Origin: a virus
Lineage: Duplodnaviria; Heunggongvirae; Uroviricota; Caudoviricetes
DNA length: 20,765 nucleotides
Reading direction: 5' to 3' (one strand)
IMG/VR virus record: IMGVR_UViG_2703718852_000001
The notes beneath the pieces were generated by a model that saw only the letters and a program-made list of their open reading frames with translations, was not told the DNA's origin and searched no databases. This document shows positions 2,364 through 17,457 of the stretch, in pieces (position 1 is the stretch's first letter; each line of letters begins with the position of its first letter). A program made the translations under genes and the position numbers.

Positions 2364-2559
2364 ATACAGCGAACTCCATTGGTTTAGTTGGATATTTACT
2401 GTGCTGGACAAAAACGGTTTGCGGGGAAATCTTAGTTAAGTAGAATGACTGCGGGTGCTTGAGGCTATCTGCCTCGGGCATGGACACCAACGGCAGATAG
2501 AGAAAAGCCCCAGTTAACATTACGCGTCCTGCAAGACGCTTAACATTAATCTGAGGCCA

Positions 2560-4260
2560 ATTTCATGCTAGACACATGTAGGTTAGCCTCTTACGTGCCG
2601 AAAGGCACGGAGAAGCAGGCTATTGTTAACACCAAGCTGTAATGTCCCCTTTGAACCATTCTAAAATGTCCCCAGACAATTCTCTGGGGGATTTTTCATG
2701 ATCAAAGAGACTGTTACGATGAGTCATAAGGAACTCCACCGACTTCAGATTATTCAGGAACAAGCTGCGGCACGCATTGGCATTTCTATTCGGCAGGTTA
2801 AACGTCTGGTGCAACGGTATAGAAATGAAGGGCCTTCTGGTCTGGTTTCCCACCGACGTGGAAAGCGTCCTAATAATTCCTTTTCTACTGAATTCAGAGC
2901 AACAGTAATTTCACTCCTCAAAGGCCGTTACGCTGATTTTGGACCTACGTTTGCGTGCGAAAAATTGCGCGAGATACACGGTTTATCTTTATCCGTTGAA
3001 ACTCTCAGAAAGTGGATGATAGAAGAGGGGTTATGGCGTGAACGCCGTCGTAAAATTGCCCGTATATATCAACGCCGCATGCGACGACCATCTTACGGTG
3101 AACTGATCCAGATTGATGGCTCACCTCATGACTGGTTTGAAAATCGAGGCCCCAGATGTACACTGATCGTTTTCATTGATGATGCCACCAGTGCGTTGAT
3201 GGCGTTGCGTTTTGTGCCTGCTGAAACAACCCGGGCTTACATGGAAACCCTCCGGGGTTACCTTAATGATCATGGCGTACCGCTCGCTCTCTACTCTGAT
3301 AGACACAGTATATTCAGGGTAAATAACCCAGAGCGGGAAGGTGAGCTGACCCAGTTCACTCGTGCGATAAAGACACTGGGCATCGAGCCAATCCATGCCA
3401 ACAGCCCGCAGGCAAAAGGGCGGGTAGAGCGCGCCAATCAGACACTACAGGACAGGCTGGTCAAAGAAATGCGGCTTCAGAATATCAGTGATATTGAAAC
3501 AGCAAATGCATGGTTGCCGACCTTTATTGAAGCCTATAACAACCGGTTCGCTACGTCGCCTCGTACTACTGATAATGCTCATCTTGATGTGCACCATTCT
3601 GAAGAGGAACTGGGTTATATCTTCAGCCTACAGGCGAAGCGCGTTCTGTCTAAAAATCTCACTTTCCAGTACAAAAGCAGTGCGTTTCAGGTACGCAGTG
3701 AGGGCCGGGGATATCGACTTAGGCATTCGGTTGTTACTGTATGCGAGAACTTTGACGGTGAAATTAACGTTCTGTATGACGGGAAAGCGCTGGGCTGGGA
3801 AAAGTATGTTGATGGCCCGGAGCCTATACCACTGGATGATGAAAAGAGTGTCCATGAACGAGTGGATAATGCCCGTATTGATTTACGCTCAAAATACTAT
3901 GTTAAACCTAAAGCTGACCATCCCTGGCTTACGCGCCGAACGCAAAGTCATCAGCAAGTTAAGCCCCCGAAGTTACCTAAAAAGAAGCCTGATCCCGATA
4001 AAAAAGATTGAAACCAAGATCGATTCGGTTGAGTGCATATCCATTCATAGGGTAGATTCTTAAGTCGCGTTTCTGGTGTTCATTTTCGGGTGGTTTGTTA
4101 CTTGTTTTACCGGGGATATGCCAGAAACGCGCTGAGTCAGTCTGGGCGGTGCGCGTAATGAGGCGTTATGGTAAATAGCCTATGCTAATGTCCGCTAAGA
4201 GCAAGAAGCGGAAGTTGGCAGTTTTGTGGACTGTCCCCACAAAAGTGACTACAGAAATAG
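2560..4260 (+). mobile_element. Insertion sequence carrying the IS481-like transposase; ends not resolved
   Basis: Single transposase ORF with flanking non-coding DNA; I could not identify convincing terminal inverted repeats or a target duplication by eye. Bounds are approximate. Confidence 0.3.
2698..4011 (+). CDS. DDE transposase, IS481-like (retroviral-integrase-type catalytic core), 437 aa
   Basis: Track ORF 2698..4011. N-terminal HTH region (..ISIRQVKRLVQRYRNEGPSGLVSHRRGKRP..) followed by DDE-type motifs (..QIDGSPHDW.., ..LYSDRHSIF.., ..ANSPQAKGRVERANQTL..), as in IS481/IS3-type transposases. Confidence 0.85.
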   Translation: MIKETVTMSHKELHRLQIIQEQAAARIGISIRQVKRLVQRYRNEGPSGLVSHRRGKRPNNSFSTEFRATVISLLKGRYADFGPTFACEKLREIHGLSLSVETLRKWMIEEGLWRERRRKIARIYQRRMRRPSYGELIQIDGSPHDWFENRGPRCTLIVFIDDATSALMALRFVPAETTRAYMETLRGYLNDHGVPLALYSDRHSIFRVNNPEREGELTQFTRAIKTLGIEPIHANSPQAKGRVERANQTLQDRLVKEMRLQNISDIETANAWLPTFIEAYNNRFATSPRTTDNAHLDVHHSEEELGYIFSLQAKRVLSKNLTFQYKSSAFQVRSEGRGYRLRHSVVTVCENFDGEINVLYDGKALGWEKYVDGPEPIPLDDEKSVHERVDNARIDLRSKYYVKPKADHPWLTRRTQSHQQVKPPKLPKKKPDPDKKD

Positions 4261-9463: not shown

Positions 9464-9630
9464 GATTGCGTCGGTTTGAAGAACAGACGATATACGAAGT
9501 AGTTTACTAAAGCAGTTCTCATTTCAGGTGTTATTCACTTATTCCTTCTTTGAGTCTCTCCAATTAAGTACGAAGTCGTTTCTGTTATGCAAACCATTTA
9601 TGCCGAAAGGCTCAAGTTAAGGAATGTAGA

Positions 9631-9846
9631 ATGTCAAATAAAATGACTGGTTTAGTAAAATGGTTTAACGCTGATAAAGGTTTCGGCTTTATTTCTCCTG
9701 TTGATGGTAGTAAAGATGTGTTTGTGCATTTTTCTGCGATTCAGAATGATAATTATCGAACCTTATTTGAAGGTCAAAAGGTTACCTTCTCTATAGAGAG
9801 TGGTGCTAAAGGTCCTGCAGCAGCAAATGTCATCATTACTGATTAA
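9631..9846 (+). CDS. cspB: Cold-shock protein CspB, 71 aa
   Basis: Translation [71 protein letters not shown] with RNP1/RNP2 motifs (KGFGFI, VFVHF). Confidence 0.95.
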
Positions 9847-9957
9847 AATTCATCGCTCGTCTGTATACGATAACGAAGAAGGCTGATGCCTGAGTAGAGA
9901 TACGGACAGAGTAGTGAATATTGGATCTCTTTAATAAAAAGTAAGGAGGTCCAATAC

Positions 9958-12367: not shown

Positions 12368-12517
12368 GTGTTCTGGTTTGTTACAAATTTATCTGAAGCA
12401 GTCATTGTTATAATTTTATTATTTGTACCTCTTGAGATTTCCTTGTTGGTTTTTCTCTCTGATATTTTTTTTCGGACCATTCTGCCCAAGGGCTAATTTC
12501 TTCAAAAGGTAATAATT

Positions 12518-12730
12518 ATGTCTAACAAAATGACTGGTTTAGTGAAATGGTTTAACCCTGAAAAAGGTTTTGGTTTCATCACGCCGAAAGATGGCAGCAA
12601 AGATGTGTTTGTCCATTTCTCAGCAATTCAGAGCAACGATTTCAAAACATTAACTGAGAATCAGGAAGTTGAATTTGGTATTGAGAACGGACCTAAAGGT
12701 CCTGCCGCTGTTCATGTAGTGGCGCTTTGA
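12518..12730 (+). CDS. cspI: Cold-shock protein CspI, 70 aa
   Basis: Translation [70 protein letters not shown] recognised as CspI. Confidence 0.95.
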
Positions 12731-12929
12731 GGTAGACAATATTACAAACCATATTCACTTTAGATGCCCGTGTTGTCATGGTTCCCAGTATAGAACATCA
12801 TCTTTTGATGTTTCTGACATGAATCCTTTCGGGGCAAAATGTATCTTTTGTAAATCAATGATGATTACATTTGATAATATTTCACAATACTTAAATGCCA
12901 GCCGTCTGTCGTTGGATTTAAAAAAGTGA
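12720..12929 (+). pseudogene. Start-less zinc-ribbon ORF, paralog of the 10210-10380 protein; probably frameshifted
   Basis: Open frame ..HIHFRCPCCHGSQYRTSSFDVSDMNPFGAKCIFCKSMMITFDNISQYLNASRLSLDLKK ending TGA 12927-12929. No ATG/GTG/TTG precedes the first Cys pair. An ATG at 12764 is out of frame by 1 nt at a CCC run. The CxC(x)C...CxxC spacing aligns with the 10210-10380 protein. Confidence 0.35.
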
Positions 12930-13232: not shown

Positions 13233-13403
13233 TTTGATGCTATTGCATTGATAATTCAGGAAAATTCTCTTTGTCTGTTTGTGTAAAATTTAGACTATCG
13301 TATGTTGATTATTGCGATGTTTCATCTTATCTTTTACACGTTTGCACCATATAATCGACTTACTGTGTAACTGGAAAGTCATAACAGACTAAAAGAGGAA
13401 ATG

Positions 13404-13577
13404 ATGAATATTGAAAACTTAAAAACAAAAGCAGAAGCAGATATTTCTGAATATATAACAAAAAAAATTATTGAACTTAAGAAAAAGACCGGGAAAGAAG
13501 TTACCAGTATTCAGTTTACCGCACGGGAAAAAATGACGGGTCTTGAAAGCTATGATGTCAAGATTAATTTAATCTGA
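13404..13577 (+). CDS. gnsB: GnsA/GnsB family protein, 57 aa
   Basis: ATG 13404 (SD GAGGA at 13394-13398) to TGA 13575-13577; translation MNIENLKTKAEADISEYITKKIIELKKKTGKEVTSIQFTAREKMTGLESYDVKINLI. Below the ORF-track cut-off. Confidence 0.75.
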   Translation: MNIENLKTKAEADISEYITKKIIELKKKTGKEVTSIQFTAREKMTGLESYDVKINLI

Positions 13578-13628: not shown

Positions 13629-13728
13629 TATATTTGAATGGTTCCGAATATCTAAATCACAATTGTTGATGGTTTTTATTAAACCAATGCAGTCCGGCTC
13701 AGGAGTGAGAGAAGCCGGACGTTATGGT

Positions 13729-14139
13729 TTAGCGTGGTAAGATCTGTGTAGTTTTCTGGATGCTTTCAGTAAATAGTAATGAATTATCAAAGGTATAGTA
13801 ATATCTTTTTTGTTCGTGGATATTTGTAACCCACCGAAAAACTCCTGCTTTAGCAAGGTTTCTTCTGTATTCCTGAAATGTGATCTCTCTGGATTTCAGC
13901 TTATTAGAGGTCGTTTCTATAAGATGCCTATCCTTTGAAAATTTGACAGACACAATGTTTTTTAGGCCCTTTAATAACACTGTATTATCATTTTTTAATA
14001 CAATATGAACATTCTCTGTGGCTAAATAGTAAATGTAATGTGAGACATTGTGACGTTTTAGCTCAGAATAAAACCATTGATAGTTTAAATCGTTTCGAAC
14101 TTTATCAAATATTTGTTTAAAAATGACTACCTGATCCAT
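13729..14139 (-). CDS. ydfO: YdfO, DUF1398 family protein, 136 aa
   Basis: Track ORF 13729..14154; internal ATG 14139 preceded by GGAAGG SD gives 136 aa ([23 protein letters not shown]...). Hairpin GTCCGGCT...AGCCGGAC (13692-13720) just past the stop. Confidence 0.8.
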
Positions 14140-14196
14140 AGATAAACCTTCCATGTGATATGAGGGGGCGTAGTCTGCACGATTATCTAAATTGCT

Positions 14197-14430
14197 TCAA
14201 TCTGGTCTGACCTGTTTTCTGAGCAATTCAGTAATGTCACTCTTTTCTTTGTTTGCTTCAGAAGAAACTCTTTTTTCTGAGCACAGTCTCCGGCGGCAGG
14301 CTTCAATGACCCAGGCTGAGAAATTCCCGGACCCTTTTTGCTCAAGAGCGATGTTAATTTGTTCAATCATTTGGTTAGGAAAGCGGATGTTGCGGGTTGT
14401 TGTTCTGCGGGTTCTGTTCTTCGTTGACAT
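14197..14430 (-). CDS. ynfO: YnfO, small protein with ribbon-helix-helix-like N-terminal region, 77 aa
   Basis: Track ORF 14197..14430. ..TRNIRFPNQMIEQINIALEQKGSGNFSAWVIEACRRRL.. has a beta-strand/helix/helix pattern typical of Arc/CopG RHH DNA-binding proteins (inference). Confidence 0.7.
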   Translation of the reverse strand: MSTKNRTRRTTTRNIRFPNQMIEQINIALEQKGSGNFSAWVIEACRRRLCSEKRVSSEANKEKSDITELLRKQVRPD

Positions 14431-14559
14431 GAGGTTGCCCCGTATTCAGTGTCGCTGATTTGTATTGTCTGAAGTTGTTTTTACGTTAAGTTGATGCAGA
14501 TCAATTAATATGATACCTGCGTCATAATTGATTATTTGACGTGGTTTGATGGCGTAGAT

Positions 14560-14818
14560 GCACGTTGTGACATGCAGATGATAATTATTATCATTTTGCG
14601 GGTCCTTTCCGGCGATCCGACAGGTTACGGGGCGGCGACCTCGCGGGTTTTCGCTATTTATGAAAATTTTCCGGTTTAAGGCATTTCCGTTCTTCTTCGT
14701 CGTAACTTAATGTTTTTATTTAAAATACCCCCTGAAAAGAAAGGAAACGACAGGTGCTGAAAACGAGCTTTTGGGCCTCTGTCGTTTCCTTTCTCTGTTT
14801 TTGGCCGTGGAATGAACA

Positions 14819-14820
<2 letters not shown>
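14560..14820 (+). other. Lambda-type cos site (cosQ, cosN, cosB region)
   Basis: ..CCGACAGGTTACG GGGCGGCGACCT CGCGGGTTTTCGCTATTTATGAAAATTTTCCGGTTTAAGG.. matches my memory of the lambda genome ends: the 12-nt cohesive end GGGCGGCGACCT lies at 14630-14641, right-end sequence to its left and the left-end cosB region leading into the Nu1 start (ATGGAAGTCAAC at 14819) to its right. Confidence 0.8.
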
Positions 14821-15969
<1,149 letters not shown>

Positions 15970-16882: not shown

Positions 16883-17457
16883 TGGCATTCAGAATGAGTG
16901 AACAACCACGGACCATAAAAATTTATAATCTGCTGGCCGGAACTAATGAATTTATTGGTGAAGGTGATGCATATATTCCGCCTCATACAGGTCTGCCAGC
17001 AAACAGTACCGATATTGCACCGCCAGATATTCCGGCTGGCTTCGTGGCTGTTTTCAACAGTGATGAGTCATCGTGGCATCTCGTTGAAGATCATCGGGGT
17101 AAAACGGTTTATGACGTGGCTTCCGGCGACGCGTTATTTATTTCTGAACTCGGTCCGTTACCGGAAAATGTTACCTGGTTATCGCCGGAAGGGGAGTTTC
17201 AGAAGTGGAACGGCACAGCCTGGGTGAAGGATACGGAAGCAGAAAAACTGTTCCGGATCCGGGAGGCGGAAGAAACAAAAAACAACCTGATGCAGGTAGC
17301 CAGTGAGCATATTGCGCCGCTTCAGGATGCTGCAGATCTGGAAATTGCAACGGAGGAAGAAATCTCGTTGCTGGAAGCATGGAAAAAGTATCGGGTATTG
17401 CTGAACCGTGTTGATACGTCAACTGCACAGGATATTGAATGGCCAGCACTGCCGTAG
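16882..17457 (+). CDS. tfaQ: Tail fibre assembly protein Tfa, 191 aa
   Basis: Track ORF 16882..17457; ATGA overlap with the stf stop; Tfa-like sequence ([28 protein letters not shown]...). Confidence 0.9.

Follow-up and report, generated by a model that had tools for sequence, protein, structure and literature searches.

The window, which is the whole analysed stretch of 20,765 nucleotides, contains a locus of the Qin prophage of E. coli with two already known Qin-prophage genes, ynfO and ydfO, that are 100% identical to the annotated ynfO/ydfO of many E. coli genomes. The first gene, ynfO (14197..14430, minus strand), encodes a 77-aa protein of the YlcI/YnfO family (DUF3950), as assigned from the open reading frame list, Pfam, NCBIfam and the RefSeq annotation. 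It is followed by ydfO (13729..14139, minus strand), which encodes in its RefSeq form a 136-aa DUF1398 protein with the YdfO-like fold (PDB 2HH8). The open reading frame of ydfO spans 13729..14154 (141 aa); the RefSeq start at 14139 has the sequence GGAAGG 7 nt upstream, whereas the alternative ATG at 14154 has no Shine-Dalgarno sequence. The earlier note had described a 77-aa and a 136-aa gene on the same strand separated by 57 nt, and the reading frames and coordinates bear this out. The spacer (14140..14196, minus strand) runs from the ynfO stop to the ydfO start, is in frame and free of stop codons and holds the GGAAGG ribosome-binding site of ydfO. A terminator scan found none in these 57 nt, and due to this and the shared reading frame, co-transcription of ynfO and ydfO is possible in Qin. 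A ynfO-ydfO fusion protein was considered and rejected, as the TGA stop is kept in 87 of 87 loci of the 77-aa YnfO type and an open in-frame spacer is estimated to arise by chance in about 13% of cases; a rare read-through allele (P0122) with TGA changed to TGG encodes a 233-aa fusion.

Both genes are oriented antisense to the lysis genes and nohA, i.e., they are convergent with gnsB and divergent from nohA. The lambda cohesive-end sequence cosN, GGGCGGCGACCT, occurs as a unique exact match at 14630..14641 (plus strand), 200 bp from the ynfO start codon, and the lambda right end aligns up to 14629. The block 14268..14629 (minus strand) shares 95% identity with the final 362 bp of the lambda sequence (48141-48502; blastn) and comprises the left side of cos, the region upstream of ynfO and ynfO codons 1-54. 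The placement of the two genes next to cos, in the accessory slot between the lysis genes and cos, was thus correctly recognized before. The site cosQ would be located at 14600..14606 (plus strand), a position transferred from the phage 434 record, in which cosQ is annotated 23-29 nt from the right end; Qin, lambda and 434 align without gaps at this place. An inverted repeat, ATCAATTA-N17-TAATTGAT, was found by a repeat search at 14500..14532, 70-100 bp upstream of ynfO; it is kept in the alignment with lambda and 434 and is a candidate operator or promoter element. A sigma-70 scan found no minus-strand promoters upstream of ynfO or ydfO, and a promoter is therefore not claimed for either gene; an Rfam search found no RNA families in the ynfO-ydfO interval. 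Right after the ydfO stop, between the convergent genes ydfO and gnsB, a GC-rich hairpin is present (13692..13720, minus strand; RNA fold -21.9 kcal/mol, z=-5.2 vs shuffles), which is a candidate terminator; this function is assigned tentatively because a canonical U-run is missing. The GC content is 0.32 in ydfO (0.32-0.44 for the accessory genes) compared to 0.53-0.56 at the nohA 5' end, and such AT-richness is typical of morons.

YnfO belongs to a small, Enterobacterales-restricted family: it matches Pfam DUF3950 with E=2.7e-21 and 75.6 bits (cut-off 25) and NCBIfam YlcI_YnfO_N (NF041551) with a score of 36.6 (cut-off 30). The conserved core comprises residues 13-50 (14281..14394, minus strand), which are near-invariant in the family alignment among E. 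coli relatives, and constitutes a putative ribbon-helix-helix (RHH) domain with a strand RNIRF, a proline, helix A at residues 19-32, a GSGNFS turn and helix B from residue 36. The C-terminal tails, on the other side, are hypervariable across the family alignment. The RHH sequence pattern proposed by the earlier note was found in YnfO, i.e., the Arc register without gaps with NIRFP, a 14-residue helix, G-S-G-N-F-S and a second helix. Moreover, 8 of 20 DUF3950 family members matched a HicB-like RHH PHROG (best E=7e-5), and five matches of member families to three Arc-like repressor PHROGs were obtained (E=0.004-0.037). Hhalign placed the strand and helix A of the DUF3950 family in the expected register of the Arc family profile (P=7e-4, probability 26%) and gave no match of the family to the single Mnt and CopG sequences. 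The AlphaFold2 model of the YnfO monomer (pLDDT 65) has an extended N-terminus, with residues 1-18 unstructured, and then two helices; the top Foldseek matches of this model in PDB and BFVD were RHH proteins at non-significant E-values of 2-3, the sole PDB match being a ParD antitoxin (E=2). Phmmer and profile searches of YnfO against the PDB returned nothing relevant. Compared to the P22 repressors Arc and Mnt, which are likewise small phage proteins, the strand, the proline, the helix of about 14 residues, the G-x-x-x-x-S turn and the second helix align gap-free; however, YnfO does not reach significance at database level, with an empty PDB profile search and Pfam RHH_6 as the single match at E=0.12, and it has another genomic position. 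The RHH assignment is supported by the pattern, the PHROG and hhalign matches and the two-helix model; the statistics are weak and no confident fold was obtained. From sequence and model, the N-terminal approximately 50 residues of YnfO most likely fold as an RHH dimer, and with such a fold YnfO would probably be a small prophage-made DNA-binding regulator.

Next to the predicted fold, the pattern of selection is informative on whether ynfO is a gene at all. The N-terminal 163 nt of ynfO are located inside the block that is 95% identical to the region left of cos in lambda, and the corresponding reading frame is unannotated in the lambda reference record, which would fit a non-functional ynfO conserved by a DNA-level constraint from the neighboring cos. 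This is extremely improbable. Within the first 50 codons, 33 polymorphic sites were observed, mostly synonymous third-position changes, with a mean dS of 0.196 vs a dN of 0.023 (dN/dS about 0.12; dS up to 1.0). Furthermore, across phages with different packaging modules the homology begins exactly at the ATG, and upstream of it no homology to the Stx-phage copies is present; this shows that the conserved unit is the protein and not the cos DNA. Relatives at 33-57% identity retain the motif IRFP...NFSAWV.(E/D)AC in satellites distant from any lambda cos, and the DLP12 homologue ylcI was reported to be transcribed, in convergent overlap with ybcW and with transcription extending into the ybcW region. 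For ydfO, dN/dS values of 0.18-0.25 were obtained in comparison to the copies in lambda and DLP12 and to ycgX. Purifying selection acts on both genes, which evolve as proteins.

YdfO matches Pfam DUF1398 with E=1.7e-46 and 157.5 bits (gathering threshold 22) and the PDB entry 2hh8_A with E=2e-90 and 140 of 141 residues identical; 2HH8 is an NMR structure. As the protein was produced in quantity for NMR, it would not be expected to be strongly toxic. Searches of YnfO and YdfO against toxin, antitoxin and defence models in Pfam, NCBIfam, PHROGs and PADLOC gave no match. The fold search for YdfO was uninformative and the predicted model is poor, so that YdfO might have a cryptic toxin-like fold. 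In the literature searched, no experiment was found on growth arrest by YdfO, on rescue by YnfO or on a YnfO-YdfO complex. Overexpression of the homologue ybcV was reported to change glycogen accumulation in an ASKA screen, and ybcV is listed there in one COG table with the toxins hokA and yoeB, which hints weakly at an effect on growth. The published induction of ydfO by an ionic liquid was 116-fold. An increased oxidative-stress resistance upon YdfO overexpression was traced to a mis-citation, as the cited paper concerns YfdO of CPS-53; similarly, "ydfO" in PMC9181523 is actually yfdO. The labels "head protein" (PHROG) and "putative envelope protein" (GenBank) for DUF1398 are unsupported by any evidence found.

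The comparison with the lambda right end and with ylcI-ybcW-ybcV of DLP12 explains how the two genes came to be neighbors. In all three, the genes occupy the same place, with Rz/bor on one side and cos on the other, and have the same orientation with respect to the late genes; the homologues share 98% identity with YnfO over residues 1-54 and 79% with YdfO. In lambda, the DUF1398 gene (lambdap78) is located at 47045-47452, lambdap79/ybcW lies on the opposite strand and an unannotated ylcI-like reading frame spans 48109-48303; in lambda and DLP12 the ylcI-like gene and the DUF1398 gene are about 690 nt apart with ybcW in between. YlcI differs in having 64 aa and another tail. In Qin, two blastn segments, the lambda-like block described above and a second one in which window positions 14213-13710 correspond to lambda 47527-47023, are separated by 54 nt (14214..14267, minus strand) that replace 613 bp of lambda, namely the 3' end of the ylcI-like gene and ybcW. 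The tight adjacency of ynfO and ydfO in Qin results from this local replacement, which removed ybcW along with the 3' end that the ylcI-like gene originally had. Most of the C-terminal tail specific to YnfO (residues 55-72) is encoded by the 54-nt junction, and this tail is a variable recombination product. The identical YnfO tail adjoins DUF1398 variants of 76%, 96% and 100% identity, and a DUF1398 protein of 79% identity adjoins the lambda-type YlcI, the tail of which is unrelated. The Qin-type haplotype is stable, with DUF1398 about 290 nt past the ynfO start in 78 of the 80 closest viral contigs.

As a result of the replacement, the ydfO promoter region overlaps the end of ynfO. A PdhR-box-like palindrome, ATCTGGTCTGACCTGTT, is present as a unique exact match at 14200..14216, where it overlaps the final codons of ynfO at a distance of 61-77 nt upstream of the ydfO start, within the block homologous to the DNA upstream of ybcV. 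Published PdhR gSELEX targets include this sequence at ydfO, a 10-fold drop in mRNA in a pdhR mutant was connected with the homologous ybcV/ybcW site, and ybcV is under PdhR control from a divergent promoter common to ybcW (PMC7660256). Moreover, ybcV/ybcW were reported to be induced more than 1000-fold upon overexpression of T4 MotB, which alters H-NS-dependent repression. With the PdhR box, ydfO has an upstream control region of its own, common to its lambda/DLP12 homologue ybcV.

Each family occurs without the other. Phage 434 carries a YnfO-like gene without DUF1398, with bor coming directly after, and the Stx phage YYZ-2008 has a solo YnfO-like gene beside an HNH-TerS gene, again without DUF1398. 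Among phage records, the YnfO-like gene was found in 152 compared to 43 for DUF1398. In other Enterobacterales, 39 of 42 loci, defined as YnfO-like matches with at most 60% identity or fragmentary matches, have no DUF1398 downstream and belong mostly to P4/PICI-like satellites. Conversely, the intact, Qin-like phage Tritos has DUF1398, and a DUF3950 gene is absent from its whole genome, in which a single tblastn match of 25 residues (E=0.002) lies inside ydfU; ycgX of K-12 is a solo DUF1398 gene. Within 5,426 E. coli genomes, ydfO-like DNA is present in 5,376 and ynfO-like DNA in 4,184, and at least 1,192 genomes have DUF1398 and lack any YnfO-like sequence; in one O157 record, 7 ynfO-like places were counted vs only 1 ydfO-like place.

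As a counterpoint to this independence, the Qin-type arrangement is stable; moreover, of the inspected phage DUF1398 loci only that of Tritos has no YnfO-like gene within about 1 kb, which would also be seen for a toxin depending on its antitoxin.

We favor, with moderate confidence, that ynfO and ydfO are two separately evolving lambdoid accessory ("moron"-type) genes antisense to the late operon and do not form a toxin-antitoxin (TA) system: YnfO would be a small RHH regulator and YdfO a DUF1398 protein, and neither would need the other. With lambdoid morons they share the inter-module slot, the patchy presence among related phages, the deviating GC content, the PdhR site with independent induction and the hairpin after ydfO. 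A close likeness is to lambda bor and lom, which are AT-rich, are located in the same slot between lysis and cos on the strand opposite to the late operon and are patchy among related phages; Bor differs in being a lipoprotein with a described serum-resistance phenotype. The earlier note had compared the two genes to antitoxin-toxin or regulator-effector pairs, a claim that is not supported in view of the families occurring apart in both directions, ybcW lying between the genes in lambda/DLP12, an adjacency explained by replacement, the PdhR site of ydfO itself and the missing toxin, antitoxin or defence matches. A type II TA system, in which YnfO would be an RHH antitoxin neutralizing the toxin YdfO by its C-terminal tail within an autoregulated operon, would account for the order of a small RHH-like protein followed by a protein of about 136 aa on the same strand, for a variable tail behind a conserved, predicted DNA-binding domain as in antitoxins, for the PHROG matches, which fall mainly on the RHH part of HicB-like antitoxins, and the ParD match in Foldseek, and for a YnfO-like gene within about 1 kb in all inspected phage DUF1398 loci except Tritos. 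Gene order, sizes, the putative RHH N-terminus with its variable tail and the weak HicB-like/ParD matches thus resemble ParDE, RelBE and HicAB; what differs is that the pairing is unconserved both ways, the partner is not a known toxin, the genes stand apart in lambda and ydfO has regulation of its own. Type II TA genes would be expected as a conserved, adjacent and co-transcribed pair; the two genes here are split in lambda/DLP12 by about 690 nt with an opposite-strand gene, and YnfO-like genes stand solo in 434, the Stx phages and the 39 distant loci. The putative toxin is kept without the antitoxin in Tritos, ycgX and the at least 1,192 E. coli genomes. The tail was made by the replacement junction, with tail types not matched to DUF1398 variants; searches in Pfam, NCBIfam and PADLOC assigned DUF1398 to no toxin family; the production for NMR argues against strong toxicity; and in their list of TA systems from cryptic prophages of K-12, Wang et al. 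name only RelBE for Qin. It is therefore very unlikely that the two form a TA system.

Regarding a regulator-effector unit confined to the Qin-type arrangement, YnfO would bind at or near its own gene and set ydfO expression, either through a shared transcript or through action on the promoter overlapping the ynfO 3' end. The spacer free of a detected terminator, the retained adjacency in 78 of 80 loci with the 77-aa form, the probable DNA binding of YnfO as judged from its sequence, the inverted repeat upstream of ynfO and the extension of DLP12 ylcI transcription into the ybcW region are consistent with such a unit. It is nevertheless unlikely, as YnfO-like genes are conserved where DUF1398 is missing (434, Stx phages and satellites), the region upstream of ynfO is not conserved along with the gene across packaging types, and ybcV is controlled by PdhR from the divergent promoter shared with ybcW. 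The other alternative, a role of YnfO/YlcI in DNA packaging or in helper-satellite interplay by binding near cos or by regulating terminase genes, with satellites copying YnfO/YlcI to sense or interfere with the helper, is quite improbable as well. It draws on the position of ynfO-like genes, which adjoin the start of the packaging module divergently with terminases of two unrelated kinds, namely the Nu1 type in lambda, Qin and 434 and the HNH-TerS type in Stx phages; Nu1 is divergent upstream in 78 of 80 loci. Moreover, YnfO homologues are common in P4/PICI-like satellites, and two DUF3950 members are fused to the first approximately 50 residues of a Terminase_2 small subunit. This part shares 64-66% identity with the TerS N-terminus of the helper type, and one of the fusions belongs to a satellite inserted in a helper terS gene. 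In helper phages, the DUF3950 gene adjoins HNH-TerS. The Terminase_2 N-terminal domain, which stands C-terminally in the two members, is absent from YnfO, and the small terminase subunit next to it in Qin is of the unrelated Nu1 type. The position beside cos may be mere linkage within the mosaic slot for morons, packaging in Tritos proceeds without a DUF3950 gene, and the fusions make up only 2 of 120 family clusters. Furthermore, neither lambda growth nor cosmid packaging requires the region left of cosQ, which counts against a role in packaging.

As a summary, a new toxin-antitoxin or defence pair would be of importance, if true, as these prophages are the best studied; the evidence points against it. 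With ynfO and ydfO read as separate accessory genes, both can be handled as independent genes in the design of experiments in K-12. DUF3950, which is present in lambda but unannotated in its reference record, can probably be filed, based on sequence and model, as an RHH DNA-binding protein. More speculatively, and with low probability in our view, DUF3950 may be an RHH module that specifically serves the packaging end in cos-type phages and PICI/P4-like satellites, with ydfO as an unrelated passenger. In helpers, DUF3950 would be retained as a solo gene divergent from those of the terminase; satellites would have one or two DUF3950 copies, in some of them joined to a copied DNA-binding domain of the helper TerS. 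The small DNA-binding protein would then read or compete for the helper cos or the terminase control region in a helper-satellite conflict. That DUF3950 recurs next to terminase genes and is fused to a TerS DNA-binding domain in satellites provides an inexpensive, testable lead on phage-satellite packaging.

The window is the Qin cryptic prophage of E. coli. Over the 1.5 kb around ynfO and ydfO it matches many complete genomes at 100% identity, and their RefSeq annotation of this stretch lists gnsB, ydfO (DUF1398), ynfO (YlcI/YnfO family) and nohA. The locus is ordinary and annotated already. The presence of two genes near cos was confirmed by the open reading frames, the family matches and the lambda cohesive-end sequence, which occurs once in the window, at 14630-14641, 200 bp from the ynfO start codon. 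The ynfO gene (14197-14430, minus strand, 77 aa) encodes a protein matching Pfam DUF3950 (E=2.7e-21) and NCBIfam YlcI_YnfO_N. The ydfO reading frame spans 13729-14154 on the minus strand; the RefSeq start at 14139 yields a product of 136 aa and leaves 57 nt to ynfO. A GGAAGG ribosome-binding site lies 7 nt before this start, and the ATG at 14154 is without such a site. YdfO matches Pfam DUF1398 (E=1.7e-46) and differs from PDB entry 2HH8 in 1 of 141 residues. Both genes lie on the strand opposite to that of the lysis cassette and nohA. A PADLOC search matched neither protein, and an Rfam search of the ynfO-ydfO interval returned no RNA family; gathering-level Rfam matches elsewhere in the window (2453-2624, 9470-9862, 12372-12757, 17225-17423) are the sok antitoxin RNA, two cspA thermoregulator leaders (cspB, cspI) and IS009.

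Several features of the surroundings were recorded. The gnsB gene (13401-13577, plus strand) is convergent with ydfO and carries the RefSeq name "GnsA/GnsB family addiction module toxin"; this toxin by annotation adjoins the proposed cassette but is unrelated to it. Between ynfO and cosQ lie an inverted repeat, ATCAATTA-N17-TAATTGAT (14500-14532), which lambda and 434 share without change, and a palindrome, ATGATAAT-t-ATTATCAT (14578-14594), of which these two phages conserve only part. The nohA reading frame (14819-15439) encodes 206 aa, and its counterpart in the complete genome closest to the window 181 aa; just downstream of it (about 15300-15700) the GC content rises to 0.59-0.65. Both fit the Qin deletion junction, at which most packaging, head and tail genes were lost, and therefore the Qin cos cannot serve the prophage itself.

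Both ynfO and ydfO are real protein genes under purifying selection. The first 50 ynfO codons of 16 distinct E. coli prophage haplotypes contain 33 polymorphic sites, mostly synonymous third-position changes (mean dS 0.196, dN 0.023, ratio about 0.12), and ydfO shows dN/dS values of 0.18-0.25 against its lambda, DLP12 and ycgX relatives. Moreover, in Stx-type phages, whose packaging module differs, ynfO homology starts exactly at the ATG with none upstream; the conserved unit is therefore the YnfO protein and not the cos-adjacent DNA. In the searched literature no function is reported for YnfO or YdfO, and a 2024 survey still counts both genes among the uncharacterised Qin genes (PMC11551758). 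A statement that YdfO overexpression confers oxidative-stress resistance (PMC4077768) was rejected, as the text of the cited Wang et al. 2010 does not contain ydfO and reports instead YfdK, YfdO and YfdS of prophage CPS-53 (PMC3105296); the claim is a name confusion with YfdO. Similarly, PMC9181523 prints ydfO where its own text means yfdO.

The earlier note had read YnfO as RHH-like, and this part stands as likely. Among YnfO relatives in E. coli, residues 1-49 are near-invariant and the tail past residue 50 is hypervariable. When 1.84 billion cluster representatives were searched exhaustively with HMMER, only 120 related clusters came up, and distant relatives (33-57% identity) retain the motif K-x-IRFP-h-x-L-I/L-E-x-I ... 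NFS(A/S)WV-x-(E/D)-AC. This motif aligns gaplessly with strand, proline, helix A, turn and helix B of P22 Arc, and both proteins have a glycine-containing turn and a serine opening helix B. Eight of 20 DUF3950 family members matched the RHH part of a PHROG of HicB-like antitoxins (best E=7e-5), five member-family matches fell on three PHROGs of Arc-like repressors, and hhalign placed strand and helix A of the DUF3950 family in the expected register of the Arc family profile (P=7e-4, probability 26%). In the AlphaFold monomer (pLDDT 65), helices span residues 19-32 and 34-72 and the N-terminus before them is unstructured, and the best Foldseek matches, both non-significant, were a ParD antitoxin (PDB) and an annotated RHH protein (BFVD); PDB sequence searches with YnfO returned nothing. 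The statistics are weak but all point in one direction. As a member of the DUF3950 family, YnfO would accordingly be a small RHH regulator that probably dimerises and may bind DNA.

The proposed pairing as antitoxin and toxin, or regulator and effector, is not supported, and several independent lines speak against it. In lambda, DUF1398 (47045-47452) and a ylcI-like reading frame (48109-48303) lie about 690 nt apart, separated by lambdap79/ybcW on the other strand, and DLP12 has the same layout (ylcI, opposite-strand ybcW, ybcV). The lambda ylcI-like frame shares 98% identity with YnfO residues 1-54 and lies about 200 bp away from the right cohesive end; its 64 codons (minus strand of NC_001416; 2710-2904 in the extracted locus L002) are without an annotated feature in the reference record. 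Window positions 14629-14268 correspond to lambda 48502-48141 at 95% identity (cos-left and ynfO codons 1-54) and 14213-13710 to lambda 47527-47023 at 84% identity (the ybcV gene with its upstream region), with 54 nt between the two blocks in Qin versus 613 bp in lambda. A replacement junction in Qin has thus produced the 57-nt spacing, together with most of the tail specific to YnfO, and explains the adjacency.

Furthermore, each gene is found without the other. In phage 434 bor comes directly after the YnfO-like gene and DUF1398 is absent, Stx phage YYZ-2008 has a solo YnfO-like gene divergent from HNH-TerS-TerL, and K-12 ycgX is a solo DUF1398 gene adjoining bluR. Phage records include 152 with a YnfO-like gene versus only 43 with DUF1398. 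DUF1398 is absent from 39 of 42 loci with a fragmentary or at most 60% identical YnfO-like match (Serratia, Klebsiella, Enterobacter, Xenorhabdus, Pectobacterium and other genera), most of which are integrase-AlpA-primase satellites with the small gene alone on its strand. Of 5,426 complete E. coli genomes, 5,376 contain ydfO-like and 4,184 ynfO-like DNA, and one O157 record has seven ynfO-like places and one ydfO-like place. An identical 77-aa YnfO is encoded beside DUF1398 variants of 76%, 96% and 100% identity; tail and partner do not co-vary. The intact isolated phage Tritos (OV696610.1; L177, L178) carries almost all Qin genes (dicB, dicF, hokD, ydfU, Q, cspB, lysis genes, cspI, ynfN, gnsB, DUF1398, ybcW) with a different terminase. 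Tritos is of use as a live relative of Qin, which is itself defective. The homology of Tritos to lambda ends just short of the ylcI-like gene, and its whole 46 kb yielded no DUF3950 gene, the only sub-threshold match being 25 residues inside ydfU (E=0.002).

Near-identical lambda right ends (ylcI-like, ybcW, DUF1398, bor, Rz, R) were also met in short contigs or contig ends of assemblies labelled Streptomyces, Cohnella, Pedobacter, Flavobacterium, Arcanobacterium ("plasmid") and others, in contigs of about 3.5 kb (L014, L016, L018, L021, L025, L029, L031, L039, L063) and about 48.5 kb (L013, L015, L028, L037) and among proteins P0014-P0120, and frameshifted versions are numerous in ENA. These copies look like lambda control or spike-in contamination, which inflates the apparent taxonomic range of both families.

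As a further line against the pairing, the ydfO gene possesses a control region of its own. The PdhR gSELEX site reported for ydfO is the palindrome ATCTGGTCTGACCTGTT at 14200-14216, within the last codons of ynfO and 61-77 nt upstream of the ydfO start (PMC7660256). For ybcV/ybcW, with a homologous site, mRNA decreased about 10-fold in a pdhR mutant (PMC7660256), and overexpression of T4 MotB, which alters H-NS-dependent repression, raised ybcV and ybcW more than 1000-fold (PMC7827196). By analogy with ybcV, the ydfO promoter is probably PdhR-dependent and H-NS-silenced. Ionic liquid was shown to induce ydfO 116-fold (PMC4077768), and ylcI is transcribed in convergent overlap with ybcW (PMC12288877).

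Some facts leave a degree of scope, in the Qin arrangement, for the two genes being transcribed together or for YnfO regulating ydfO locally. Among the 80 closest IMG/VR loci, DUF1398 lies 290-372 nt past the ynfO start in 78, and Nu1 is divergent upstream of ynfO in 78 as well; the Qin-type haplotype is common and stable. A terminator scan between the genes found none, they share a reading frame across an open 57-nt spacer, and among the inspected phage DUF1398 loci Tritos alone is without a YnfO-like neighbour. A rare allele (P0122, six contigs) with TGA changed to TGG at 14197-14199 encodes a 233-aa YnfO-YdfO fusion, and another (P0006, TGA to CGA) a partial 86-aa read-through; however, the TGA stop is kept in all 87 examined loci of the 77-aa type, which speaks against the fusion reading. 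Stable adjacency, terminator-free shared frame and near-constant neighbour are consistent with simple linkage in one recombination block. Co-occurrence of the two genes is not obligate, and the most likely reading is that they are accessory genes independent of each other, located in the moron slot beside cos and brought together in Qin by a local replacement, with YdfO a probably non-toxic DUF1398 protein of unknown activity.

DUF3950 genes are frequent in satellites, and in two terminase contexts unrelated to each other they lie next to where the packaging module begins. In two family clusters, P0310 and P0328, DUF3950 is fused to the N-terminal ~50 residues of a Terminase_2 small subunit, both domains scoring above the Pfam cut-offs. 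A PICI/P4-like satellite (L168, E. coli CP027459.1; 5590-6363, 8696-9776), inserted after codon ~61 of the terS of a helper prophage, carries the fusion gene and an adjoining solo DUF3950 gene, both on one strand, with every other satellite gene on the other. The TerS-like part of the fusion is 64-66% identical to the helper-type TerS N-terminus, and beside HNH the helper carries a DUF3950 gene of its own. Loci L167 and L169-L171 were listed together with L168 for the satellite-in-terS arrangement. Terminase-side placement, frequency in satellites and TerS fusions weakly suggest that the DUF3950 domain acts at a packaging or control region in helper-satellite interplay.

As a summary, the gains are modest: DUF3950 receives a probable fold, and ynfO and ydfO are to be studied as separate genes.
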